From Shigella phage Shf125875, in the sequence record KM407600: a DNA stretch of 64,000 nt. One strand, 5' to 3'. The position numbers and the translations under genes are program-made. The notes under the pieces were generated by a model. The model ran no database searches, had not been told where the DNA came from, and saw only the letters and a list, made by a program, of their open reading frames with translations. Of this stretch, positions 36,449 through 38,735 are shown in pieces (positions within the stretch are counted from its first letter, which is position 1; each line of letters begins with the position of its first letter).

Positions 36449-36757
36449 TTACATAAGAAGCAAACGTTCGACCGGAGTACCATCAACCGAAATTACTTTA
36501 TCAAGGCGGAAAGAACGCCACTGACCTAACTTGGTATCAAATGCTCGAACTGATTCACGAGGTTCAGAACGAACTTCTGTTGCCGGATTGTTATTTTCAT
36601 ATTTGACTTCAAGTTCATCACGCGAAGCAAACATAGTGCGTACCTCGCCGTTAGCCTTTTCAAATACAACACAATGAACGCCTACAGACAGAATAGTTTT
36701 AATACGTTCACGAAGAACCATAGTTTCTTGTTCAGTTAAAATCATATTATTCACCAC
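36449..36757 (-). CDS. Hypothetical protein (31.1-like)
   Basis: 102 aa ORF between cd and 31. Confidence 0.5.
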   Translation of the reverse strand: MVNNMILTEQETMVLRERIKTILSVGVHCVVFEKANGEVRTMFASRDELEVKYENNNPATEVRSEPRESVRAFDTKLGQWRSFRLDKVISVDGTPVERLLLM

Positions 36758-37328
36758 AAAAGTTTCGGATTTGTTCCCAATTCAGAGAACGAAGATTATT
36801 ACGAGAGTACTGAATTACTTCAATACCGGCTTGTTTTAGAATGTCTGCCCAATTTTCAGGAGATCTGTCATATAATTCTGCGTATACAACCTTTTTAATA
36901 CCTGACTGCGTAATAGCTTTAGTGCAATCAGGACACGGAGAAAGCGTCGTATATAACGTAGCACCTTCAATAGAATTACCTTTACGAGCTGCAAACAAAA
37001 TTGCGTTCAGTTCCGCATGGATTTCGTTATTAGCAGACCATGCACTATGAGCCGCTCGATGTTCTTTAGCCAAAACAAAATTATCTGCCCGTCCAAATGC
37101 TGTAGTGCCTTCTTTATGACCGGCAATGATGACAGGACTCGGCTTGTTCTTCAACCAACCTTGTTCAGTAGCATGGTCACAACAGTTTATACCACCTGCA
37201 GGTGAACCGTTATATCCAGTAGAGATAATGCGTCCATCTTTTTCAATGACGGCACCTACTTTCCATGAACAACATTTTGATTCTTGAGAAATCAAATAAG
37301 CAATTTGAAGATATGTGCTAGCTTTCAT
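36747..37328 (-). CDS. cd: dCMP deaminase
   Basis: 193 aa, same as T4 Cd; zinc motifs HAELNAI and PCPDC. Confidence 0.9.
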   Translation of the reverse strand: MKASTYLQIAYLISQESKCCSWKVGAVIEKDGRIISTGYNGSPAGGINCCDHATEQGWLKNKPSPVIIAGHKEGTTAFGRADNFVLAKEHRAAHSAWSANNEIHAELNAILFAARKGNSIEGATLYTTLSPCPDCTKAITQSGIKKVVYAELYDRSPENWADILKQAGIEVIQYSRNNLRSLNWEQIRNFCGE

Positions 37329-38320
37329 TATTGAACCTTATTAATATAAGTTAACAGCTCTTTAGTTTGTTCCCAACTGATGCACGCATCGGTAACGGAA
37401 ACGCCATAGGACATATTATCAGAAATTTTTTGATTTCCTTCATGTAGGAACGATTCTATCATAATTCCTTTGACCAAATCATTAGCTGCTAAATTTTTAC
37501 CAATACCAATTTGATTGCTATAATGCCCATCAGCGTTTGCATGGCTACAGTCAACCATTACATAATGATTCAGACCTACTGCCCTTGCTTTGTTAGAAGC
37601 TTCTTGAATATCAGAAGAATGATAGTTCGGGCCGTTGGTCCCGCCACGCAATACGATATGCGTATTCTGATTACCTTCAGCTTCAACAATGCCTACAGTA
37701 CCATCGACGTCCATACCCATATACCGATGAGGCCAGGCGGCACTATACATCGCGTCTGTAGCTACTTTAATAGAACCATTGGTTGCGTTCTTGAAGCCTA
37801 CGCACATCGGTAGACCTGAAGCAATTTCACGATGTGTCTGACTTTCAGTCGTACGGGCGCCAATAGCAACCCATGAGAAAATACCAGAAAGATACTTAAT
37901 CGTGAATGGGTCTAATACTTCAGTTGCTAATGGAAGTCCCATACGTAGAAGTTTACGACACAATGTTCGTGCAACTATAAGACCGTGGTTCATATCAAAA
38001 CTTCCGTCAAGATATGGATCATTTACAAGACCTTTCCAACCTACGGTAGTTCGAGGCTTTTCAAAATAAACGCGCATCACTAACAGAACATTAGGAAGAC
38101 GAGTTTGAAGTTCAGCCAGACGTTTGCCGTATTCAACAGCAGCAATAGGGTCATGAATTGAACAAGGACCTACAACAATAAGTTTGCGTGGGTCTTCACC
38201 GTTCATAATCGAATTAACTTGTTCGCGATGAGAAGCCACTTGTGATGCGTAAGCTTCCGACAAAGGAATAATCTCAGCCAGTTCTTTTGGAGAAATAAGT
38301 TTTCCGACGACAGGTAACAT
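37328..38320 (-). CDS. 3-deoxy-D-arabino-heptulosonate-7-phosphate (DAHP) synthase, class I (AroG/AroF/AroH-like)
   Basis: 330 aa; blocks VVGPCSIHD, MRVYFEKPRTTVGWKGL, GARTTESQ, DCSHAN, ESFLHEGNQ, TDACI align with E. coli AroG including metal ligands; start overlaps region of cd stop. Confidence 0.85.
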   Translation of the reverse strand: MLPVVGKLISPKELAEIIPLSEAYASQVASHREQVNSIMNGEDPRKLIVVGPCSIHDPIAAVEYGKRLAELQTRLPNVLLVMRVYFEKPRTTVGWKGLVNDPYLDGSFDMNHGLIVARTLCRKLLRMGLPLATEVLDPFTIKYLSGIFSWVAIGARTTESQTHREIASGLPMCVGFKNATNGSIKVATDAMYSAAWPHRYMGMDVDGTVGIVEAEGNQNTHIVLRGGTNGPNYHSSDIQEASNKARAVGLNHYVMVDCSHANADGHYSNQIGIGKNLAANDLVKGIMIESFLHEGNQKISDNMSYGVSVTDACISWEQTKELLTYINKVQ

Positions 38321-38440
38321 AACAATCCTTAGGAGATATAAACAGATTCTGATTCAACAATACCTTTAACCGGATTAGACAGGCTAAGTTGGTAGTGCTC
38401 AGATTTATGACCATTCTCGATAGTAATGAGATAGCTCTCA

Positions 38441-38677
38441 TTATAGTGTTCCATATACTCGAGTTGCTTCAACAAGACCATCACTGCCTAATTTAAGATT
38501 AGTAATTTGGTCACCATCTTTAGGATTAACGATTATGAGAAAAGAACGTGGAGATTCTTGAATAACTCGTAATGTTGCATCTTGGAAACGTTCAGACACT
38601 TTATTGATGAGTGCTTGAGCAAATTCTTTTACTTTAATCTGAAATTCGTGTACTGTAATTGGGTTTTCACTTAGCAT
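38441..38677 (-). CDS. Hypothetical protein (cd.x-type)
   Basis: 78 aa ORF with early-type promoter upstream. Confidence 0.4.
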   Translation of the reverse strand: MLSENPITVHEFQIKVKEFAQALINKVSERFQDATLRVIQESPRSFLIIVNPKDGDQITNLKLGSDGLVEATRVYGTL

Positions 38678-38704: not shown

Positions 38705-38735
38705 TATAGTATCACAACTCCACCATGTTGTAAAT
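38705..38735 (-). promoter_or_regulatory. Early sigma70-type promoter (same family)
   Basis: Minus-strand ATTTACAACATGGTGGAGTTGTGATACTATAAC. Confidence 0.45.

Follow-up and report, generated by a model that had tools for sequence, protein, structure and literature searches.

The question raised by the DNA considered here, a stretch of 64,000 nucleotides from Shigella phage Shf125875 (sequence record KM407600, referred to below as the window), is why a T-even phage should carry its own gene for DAHP synthase (DAHP, the 7-phosphate of 3-deoxy-D-arabino-heptulosonate), the first enzyme of the shikimate pathway. The source is of Mosigvirus type, an RB69-like T-even phage, and the 8-kb stretch around the gene is ~97% identical to that of PhAPEC2 and phiC120. 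On balance we favour the view that a feedback-blind DAHP synthase would open the host shikimate pathway early in infection and so supply prephenate to a phage-encoded protein of the U32 family, a role that appears the likeliest of those considered because the characterised U32 enzymes need prephenate.

The coding sequence lies on the minus strand at 37328..38320 (ATG start, 330 residues, stop codon included), as defined by the list of open reading frames (ORFs) and by matches in Pfam, NCBIfam and the PDB, and the sequence also contains a Shine–Dalgarno-like AAGGA at 38326..38330 on the same strand, five bases ahead of the ATG at 38320-38318. The protein matches the Pfam family DAHP_synth_1 (PF00793; E=5e-75, 252 bits against a cutoff of 25.5), the NCBIfam aroFGH equivalog TIGR00034 (427.7 bits, cutoff 173.2) and NF009395 (455 bits, cutoff 343), and its top relatives in the PDB are the Escherichia coli enzymes AroF (6agm, E=5e-105) and AroG (1kfl, E=4e-91). 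Alignment with the E. coli K-12 isozymes gives identities of 51% to AroF, 47% to AroG and 44% to AroH. The metal ligands are kept, with C61, H268, E302 and D326 of AroG corresponding to C53, H260, E289 and D311 of the window protein, and so are the residues that bind phosphoenolpyruvate (PEP; R92, K97, G163, A164, R165, K186 and R234 in AroG numbering) and the KPRT residues that bind erythrose-4-phosphate (E4P). An earlier note on this DNA had recognised an AroF/AroG/AroH-type enzyme with an intact active site, and all of the motifs that it quoted are present; judged by its sequence, the gene encodes a catalytically complete DAHP synthase of type I-alpha, predicted to condense PEP and E4P to DAHP. 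The models for individual isozymes are not reached, as the protein scores 363 bits against a cutoff of 568 for AroG (NF006723) and 386 against 463 for AroH (NF009396).

It is in the regulatory site that the phage enzymes depart from their cellular relatives. The comparison drew on the 120 best database homologs together with reference sequences, and comprised 31 sequences of a phage clade and 98 cellular ones. The metal ligands are invariant throughout and the nine catalytic positions examined are identical in the two groups. At AroG positions 150, 151, 180 and 209 the cellular homologs have Pro (in 91 of the 98), Gln, Ser and Phe, and the phage clade has the substitutions P150 to I, Q151 to K, S180 to P and F209 to Y, with one Pro at 150 and one Arg at 151 as the exceptions; the I, K and P of positions 150, 151 and 180 are seen in none of the 98 cellular proteins. 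The stretch ahead of the catalytic Cys measures 48–52 residues in every phage-clade protein and has a median of 61 in the cellular proteins; what is missing from the phage proteins is the N-terminal 8–10 residues, which include D6 and D7 of the inhibitor-binding segment of AroG. For the window protein itself the figure is 52, against 60 in AroG, so that the shortening by about eight residues described in the earlier note is exact. A longer N-terminus is ruled out, since the ORF begins at the first start codon past an in-frame stop, and homologs in six genera share the same start position. The allosteric site for aromatic amino acids, made up of the N-terminal segment and AroG P150, Q151, S180 and F209, is therefore not retained in the window enzyme, which belongs to the catalytic family and stands outside the feedback-regulated isozyme types.

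The meaning of these positions is known from engineered enzymes, for which a published review lists AroG P150L and S180F as feedback-resistant variants that abolish inhibition by Phe, and places Q151 and S180 in contact with the bound inhibitor. Because the phage enzymes combine substitutions at known feedback positions with the loss of N-terminal inhibitor-binding residues, there are strong grounds to predict that they are insensitive to Phe, Tyr and Trp and hence constitutively active. The earlier note had proposed such insensitivity from the short N-terminus; it is very probable, and the changes at 150, 151 and 180 are the stronger evidence for it. That the substitutions extend across the whole phage clade appears to be a new observation.

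Comparison with well-studied enzymes makes the combination clearer. The window protein resembles the Tyr-sensitive E. coli AroF (6agm) in its 51% identity over 329 aligned positions, its metal, PEP and E4P residues and its match to the aroFGH equivalog, and it shares with that Tyr-type isozyme a Gly at the position of AroG residue 211. It differs from AroF in lacking the N-terminal inhibitor-binding segment, in having I, K, P and Y at AroG positions 150, 151, 180 and 209, in two short deletions (of 5 and ~2–3 residues) in the C-terminal third, and in belonging to a monophyletic clade made up of phage proteins alone, which has no cellular donor close to it. Set against the laboratory feedback-resistant forms of AroG and AroF (AroG P150L, S180F, D146N and Q151 variants), the phage enzymes are changed at the same P150 and S180, and also at Q151, but to Ile, Pro and Lys rather than to the Leu and Phe of the engineered P150L and S180F; the changes are combined with the N-terminal truncation and have been fixed by natural selection in at least seven genera, and here the insensitivity is a prediction.

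The presence of such a gene in phages is already known. A tblastn search of 50,697 phage records found DAHP synthase in 211, with over 36 of the copies 100% identical, and many are annotated as aroF or DAHP synthase, which disposes of any novelty in the mere presence of the gene, a point that the earlier note had left to be checked. Two publications, a bioRxiv 2020 preprint (Mosigvirus) and PMC11845039 (Klebsiella phage KLB31), count it among the auxiliary metabolic genes and give its function as unknown or generic, and the phiC120 genome paper mentions a DAHP synthase domain; our literature searches returned such passing mentions only and no experimental work on a phage DAHP synthase.

The gene is also an old one in these phages. 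Copies 55–77% identical stand at the same position in Kanagawavirus, Winklervirus, Marfavirus, Bragavirus, Kagamiyamavirus and a metagenomic T4-like contig, in the order pseT, small ORFs, DAHP synthase, zero to two small ORFs, cd, gene 31 and rIII. The phage proteins group in a single clade that no cellular sequence enters, and a recent host donor was considered and rejected, given that all cellular homologs are ≤ ~55% identical and that the GC content at third codon positions is phage-like and matches the neighbouring genes. Between genera the dN/dS ratio is 0.15–0.18. The monophyly of the clade and its phage-like codon composition mark a long-resident gene, which by these sequence measures is old, vertically maintained and under purifying selection. 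More remote homologs, 35–48% identical, were seen in non-T4-like or fragmentary phage records, namely the human faecal contigs MT837410 and MT838377, Aeromonas phage HJ05 (OQ594355) and the CAKLQH02 contigs of Acinetobacter phage MD-2021a.

What the T4-like phages with this gene have in common is a second gene, found in the cluster that makes modified cytosine. According to published work, DNA of the RB69 type carries arabinosylated 5-hydroxycytosine, the sugar of which derives from ribulose-5-phosphate. In phiC120 the cluster reads arabinose-5-phosphate isomerase, a small ORF, a nucleotidyltransferase/kinase, a phosphatase, a 386-residue peptidase_U32 protein, a 79-residue ORF, a gene like thymidylate synthase (TS), a glycosyltransferase and a kinase. 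The U32 protein (RB69p050) is labelled in a 2026 paper in Nucleic Acids Research only as a 'sugar or heterocycle reductase', and RlhA and TrhP are cited there merely as unrelated pathways. These two, and UbiU/V, are the characterised U32 proteins; they are iron–sulphur enzymes whose hydroxylation reactions need prephenate and no O2. RlhA produces 5-hydroxycytidine in rRNA; with UbiU/V it has been shown that prephenate donates the oxygen, and the same is proposed for the entire U32 family. Of a link between U32, prephenate or chorismate and phage DNA modification, our literature searches gave passing mentions only.

The two genes have much the same distribution. U32 occurs in 220 phage records, against the 211 with DAHP synthase, with a nearly identical list of taxa; the Mosigvirus records number 152 with U32 and 138 with DAHP synthase, and the remaining differences in count come from Yersinia (6 records), Pectobacterium (2) and Shewanella (2). 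The two lists of matches share at least 12 Mosigvirus records, among them PhAPEC2, KAW3E185, SA79RD and O157 typing phage 3, and all of the sampled T4-like phages outside Mosigvirus that have DAHP synthase also have U32. This suggests that the T4-like phages with DAHP synthase are a subset of those with U32, an assumption on which the counts reconcile, and the confinement of the T4-like enzyme to lineages with U32 inside a 5-hydroxycytosine cluster appears to be a new observation. The possibility that DAHP synthase instead tracks the arabinose-5-phosphate isomerase was rejected, as 57 Acinetobacter phages have the isomerase with neither U32 nor DAHP synthase. DLP3 and Kimel, phages of aerobic hosts, have the same cluster with neither U32 nor chorismate mutase, and in Kimel the gene for the phosphatase immediately adjoins the TS-like one at the site that is occupied by the U32–chorismate mutase pair in phages of facultative anaerobes. 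In Klebsiella phage F48 (locus L013) and in a 168.5-kb IMG/VR contig whose U32 protein is 89% identical (L029) the cluster has U32 and the TS-like gene and no arabinose-5-phosphate isomerase, that of L029 being also without chorismate mutase; such Klebsiella-type phages may attach a different sugar, or none.

Chorismate mutase, the enzyme that turns chorismate into prephenate, is itself encoded by the phage in most of the sister genera with DAHP synthase. It lies between U32 and the TS-like synthase of 5-hydroxydeoxycytidine monophosphate (5hodCMP) in Kanagawavirus, Marfavirus, Winklervirus, Kagamiyamavirus, Bragavirus, Tegunavirus and Mosugukvirus and in Shewanella phage Thanatos, scoring 40–47 bits on the Pfam model CM_2 (cutoff 27), and in Entb_45 it overlaps the stop and start codons of both neighbours. 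In Mosigvirus the exact position that it holds in the other U32-bearing T4-like genera is taken by the 79-residue ORF (phiC120 gp158, RB69ORF049c; L011 14825-15064).

The phage U32 proteins form a subfamily of their own, with ten invariant cysteines across 20 sequences that are 48–87% identical to the first. The subfamily includes phiC120 gp159, the counterpart of RB69p050 (L011 15061-16221). Among the invariant cysteines are those of a C-terminal CX4CX3CX2C block (CGTTCTYC) that resembles the radical-SAM motif CX3CX(aromatic)C, and the phage cysteines gave no alignment to the canonical four-Cys motif of UbiU/V. Membership of the family rests on Pfam and on published structure matches.

The association recurs in phages far from T4. 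When relatives of U32 were collected from IMG/VR and metagenomes, 15 of the loci were T4-like and 36 were divergent, many of the latter on contigs of jumbo phages. Among the divergent loci a bare DAHP synthase of 248 residues and type I-beta directly follows U32 in two, a fused type I-beta DAHP synthase–chorismate mutase directly precedes it in four, and a chorismate mutase directly follows it in five; in several, an arabinose isomerase gene is found just upstream. The bare proteins score 221–237 bits on the NCBIfam DAHP synthase model against 61–67 bits on models of 3-deoxy-D-manno-octulosonate 8-phosphate (KDO8P) synthase, and the one that was queried against the PDB (L025) has the Pyrococcus furiosus enzyme as its top match. 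A TS-family gene lies within 10 kb of U32 in only one of the 36 divergent loci, compared with all 15 of the T4-like ones. The placing of U32 beside DAHP synthase or chorismate mutase in unrelated jumbo-phage contigs appears to be new, and on these gene contents two DAHP synthase subfamilies, both predicted to be without regulatory parts, are recruited beside the same U32 subfamily. The enzymes that adjoin U32 in the divergent phages are of the kind of the unregulated type I-beta DAHP synthase of P. furiosus (1zco/4c1k) and of the bifunctional DAHP synthase–chorismate mutase enzymes (NF009239), and their task is apparently that of the window gene too, although the latter is of type I-alpha, was acquired independently, is distant from U32 and has no chorismate mutase fused to it.

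The divergent, often jumbo, phage contigs L042, L025, L053, L055-L057, L059, L064, L065, L068 and L069 have U32 beside a type I-beta DAHP synthase, a fusion or a chorismate mutase with no TS-like gene within 10 kb; their DNA may be modified by a pathway not yet described, with U32 as its only hydroxylase. In two contigs of phages with a DnaE-type polymerase (L024 8276-9855 and L026 9444-11083) a dCMP deaminase gene stands directly before U32, recalling the coupling of DAHP synthase to cd described below, and a conserved protein of ~250 residues with no family match comes after it. An 86-kb metagenomic contig, either phage or bacterial (L027 10001-16360), has two U32 paralogs 4 kb apart with genes between them for a radical SAM/SPASM protein, a 5'-nucleotidase (NT5C), a deoxynucleoside kinase and an NMN transporter.

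From these observations a course of events can be proposed. The DAHP synthases of E. coli are feedback-inhibited, and are transcriptionally repressed when aromatic amino acids are abundant. The phage enzyme would reopen the shikimate pathway whatever the state of the host, the constitutive host enzymes AroB to AroC would convert DAHP to chorismate, and chorismate mutase, phage-encoded in most sister genera and supplied by host PheA/TyrA in Mosigvirus, would make prephenate; DAHP synthase and chorismate mutase, taken with the constitutive enzymes of the host, point to prephenate as the single product metabolite. Prephenate would then serve as co-substrate and oxygen donor for the iron–sulphur U32 protein (RB69p050, phiC120 gp159). 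One molecule would be spent per hydroxylation, and by a rough estimate the tens of thousands of cytosines in each genome would outstrip a feedback-throttled host pathway. That the U32 protein hydroxylates a pyrimidine with prephenate is what the behaviour of its family and its gene neighbourhood lead us to infer.

A further step, which we put forward as a possibility that falls somewhat short of probable, is that DAHP synthase, chorismate mutase and U32 together form a virus-encoded, O2-independent route to 5-hydroxypyrimidine DNA in which U32 hydroxylates C5 of dCMP or of cytosine in DNA. The two aromatic-pathway enzymes would bypass both feedback-controlled host steps and flood the cell with prephenate, so that gut phages could make arabinosyl-5-hydroxycytosine DNA when the flavin- and O2-dependent 5hodCMP synthase is unable to act; U32 would be the sole hydroxylase in those divergent jumbo phages where it occurs with an arabinose pathway and no TS-like gene. 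There is a parallel in E. coli, where the U32 systems RlhA (ho5C2501), TrhP (ho5U34) and UbiU/UbiV (anaerobic ubiquinone) work without O2, alongside an O2-dependent enzyme (TrhO or UbiI/H/F), and the phage likewise pairs an O2- and flavin-dependent 5hodCMP synthase with a U32 protein. The bacterial systems draw on the housekeeping aro pathway, whereas the phage brings an entry enzyme that is predicted to be deregulated, and often a chorismate mutase as well. A broader parallel is with phage auxiliary metabolic genes that relieve host bottlenecks, such as the cyanophage transaldolase gene talC and psbA. Like these, DAHP synthase is a host-derived enzyme of central metabolism that would redirect flux during infection, but it acts on the shikimate pathway and is apparently tied to DNA-modification chemistry rather than to energy or bulk nucleotide supply.

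Several points weigh against the supply of prephenate to U32. The published TS-like gp48, which is flavin- and O2-dependent, suffices together with a kinase to give 5-hydroxydeoxycytidine when O2 is present. DAHP synthase is dispensable, in that RB69, the Tegunavirus phiR1-RT and the Mosugukvirus PM2 have U32 and no DAHP synthase at the site between pseT and cd. The subset relation between the two genes rests on ~25 named genomes, every one of which fits, and on count arithmetic, and the T4-like genera that enter the co-occurrence count are not phylogenetically independent. The two genes lie ~100 kb apart in T4-like phages with no adjacency, which makes co-occurrence the link between them, and the U32 region falls outside the window, so that its presence in Shf125875 is deduced from relatives that have a 100% identical DAHP synthase and U32. 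The phage U32 protein is very divergent from the characterised enzymes: neither BLASTP nor a profile of the phage U32 proteins gave a significant match to E. coli RlhA, TrhP, UbiU or UbiV, and a PDB search was empty. A chorismate mutase beside U32 was expected in Mosigvirus, but the 79-residue ORF found there is unrelated, with no Pfam or NCBIfam match and no alignment to the phage chorismate mutases, and tblastn found no chorismate mutase elsewhere in Mosigvirus. Finally, DAHP synthase and chorismate mutase are also the two feedback-controlled steps on the way to Phe and Tyr, and their joint presence would equally raise both.

This last point leads to the main rival explanation, which is a general supply of amino acids. 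A deregulated DAHP synthase, with chorismate mutase where present, would increase the Phe and Tyr (and Trp) available to the burst of phage protein synthesis that follows the shut-off of host gene expression, as has been proposed for Klebsiella phage KLB31 (PMC11845039), and the predicted early expression of the gene and its purifying selection are in keeping with this. Needs of protein synthesis are shared by hundreds of T4-like genomes, however, and DAHP synthase is confined to the U32-bearing ones; the chorismate mutase gene sits translationally coupled between those for U32 and the 5hodCMP synthase, within the DNA-modification cluster; DAHP synthase and chorismate mutase genes again adjoin U32 in unrelated phages; and the regions examined showed neither a prephenate dehydratase or dehydrogenase nor an aminotransferase. 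We regard amino-acid supply as unlikely on this evidence.

The purpose suggested in the earlier note, that chorismate is directed to para-aminobenzoate (pABA) and folate and so sustains the thymidylate cycle of the phage (td, frd), is far less likely still. It has in its favour that DAHP synthase is coupled to cd and shares its strand with frd, td and nrdAB, and that td needs folate. But all T4-like phages have td, frd and cd, and DAHP synthase is restricted to the U32 lineages, so that its distribution follows U32 rather than td and frd; most of the genera that carry it encode a chorismate mutase, which would divert chorismate from pABA to prephenate; the regions examined showed no pabA/B/C and no other gene of folate synthesis; and folate is catalytic and recycled by frd, which implies a small demand.

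It is just as doubtful that the enzyme acts as a carbon sink, the consumption of E4P and PEP pulling the non-oxidative pentose-phosphate pathway towards pentose phosphates for deoxynucleotides and for the arabinose of the DNA. The arabinose pathway does start from ribulose-5-phosphate and many of the phages with DAHP synthase carry the arabinose-5-phosphate isomerase, yet the Acinetobacter phages with the isomerase have no DAHP synthase and Klebsiella phage F48 has DAHP synthase and U32 with no isomerase in the cluster; the E4P drain would cost one PEP and one tetrose for each pentose gained, and chorismate mutase would be left unexplained. Least credible of all is a drift to another 3-deoxy-ulosonate for a sugar-related step, such as KDO8P from the arabinose-5-phosphate that the phage makes, because although the Pfam family includes KDO8P synthase, KPRT and all residues contacting E4P and PEP are of the AroF/G/H type, the DAHP synthase equivalog cutoff is passed and no KDO8P synthase model is among the NCBIfam matches at E ≤ 0.1.

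The window gene fills the slot of T4 cd.1, between cd.2 and cd in the pseT–cd interval, where the earlier note had placed small cd.x ORFs in T4. Directly downstream on the minus strand, at 36747..37328, is cd, which encodes a dCMP deaminase of 193 residues (Pfam dCMP_cyt_deam_1, E=5e-26; full-length alignment with T4 cd). The DAHP synthase stop codon TAA (37330-37328) overlaps the cd start ATG (37328-37326) in a TAATG, so that the two are separate reading frames, translationally coupled, and neither the fusion to cd nor the overlap of the DAHP synthase start with the cd stop given in the earlier note is found; it is the upstream gene whose stop overlaps the downstream start. Upstream, at 38441..38677 on the minus strand, is a cd.2-like gene (DUF7320, Pfam E=1.5e-35) nearly identical to RB69 cd.2, the first after a sigma-70-type promoter-like site at 38706..38734 (minus strand; TTTACA-17-TACTAT with an upstream TG). 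This site, found by a consensus scan, is homologous, on comparison of the window with T4 and RB69, to the annotated T4 early promoter Pe133295 (cd.3/cd.2), and because that early promoter is conserved at 38734-38706 it probably drives the cd.2-like gene, DAHP synthase and cd together early in infection. Co-expression with the nucleotide genes, as the earlier note had it, thus holds for cd; frd, td, nrdA and nrdB lie 5.5–11 kb upstream on the same strand, and since several genes and promoter-like sites intervene they share a temporal region with DAHP synthase and not an operon.

A non-coding leader of 120 nt (38321..38440, minus strand) separates the cd.2-like stop from the DAHP synthase start. 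A regulatory RNA or promoter was looked for in it and rejected, the fold having a z-score of -1.1 (not significant), with no Rfam match and no internal promoter-like site. A 55-residue ORF in another frame (38274-38441, minus strand) has as its start codon the ATG within the TAATG of the cd.2-like stop, and crosses the leader into the start of DAHP synthase; it is probably a relic of an ancestral cd.2/cd junction and not a gene. Just downstream of cd, and overlapping its end by 11 nt, is a WYL_2 gene (Sm-like SH3 barrel, E=9e-10; 36449-36757, minus strand) that corresponds in position to T4 31.1/31.2.

Comparison with RB69 defines the unit in which the gene is present or absent. By blastn RB69 lacks exactly 37332-38431 of the window, that is, the ORF and the last 110 nt of the leader (38321-38431), with flanks 95–97% identical. 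At each end of this segment stands a 7-nt direct repeat, ATAATGA, on the minus strand, one copy being at the cd.2-like stop (38438..38444, upstream) and the other at the DAHP synthase stop and cd start, where it includes the TAATG overlap (37325..37331, downstream), and the RB69 cd.2/cd junction, ACACTATAATGAAAGC, is an exact recombinant of the two copies. RB69 cd is annotated with 169 residues, ending in ADILKPSWY, compared with 193 in the window and in T4 (L015 4743-5252). That a deletion had reached into the 5' end of cd was considered as the reason and rejected, the N-terminus being intact and the difference C-terminal; the shortness is due to a C-terminal frameshift or to a sequencing error in the reference record.

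If the predicted loss of feedback control is confirmed, these phages would hold a DAHP synthase changed at the very positions that engineers have used for deregulation, fixed by nature across at least seven genera, and the enzyme would offer both a ready-made deregulated catalyst and a natural experiment on the allosteric site. Confirmation of its role would give a testable function to an auxiliary gene listed as of unknown function, and to RB69p050, the sole gene of the cluster that current models leave unexplained, and would suggest how these phages could modify their DNA without oxygen in the gut, where they replicate. This would bear on candidates for phage therapy, which include many Mosigvirus and Klebsiella phages, and on evasion of restriction and CRISPR. 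Should the O2-independent route prove true, DNA precursors would for the first time be the target of a U32 hydroxylase, and a virus would for the first time be seen to rewire the shikimate pathway for a co-substrate rather than an amino acid; the recently proposed chemistry of prephenate-dependent U32 hydroxylation would extend to viruses.

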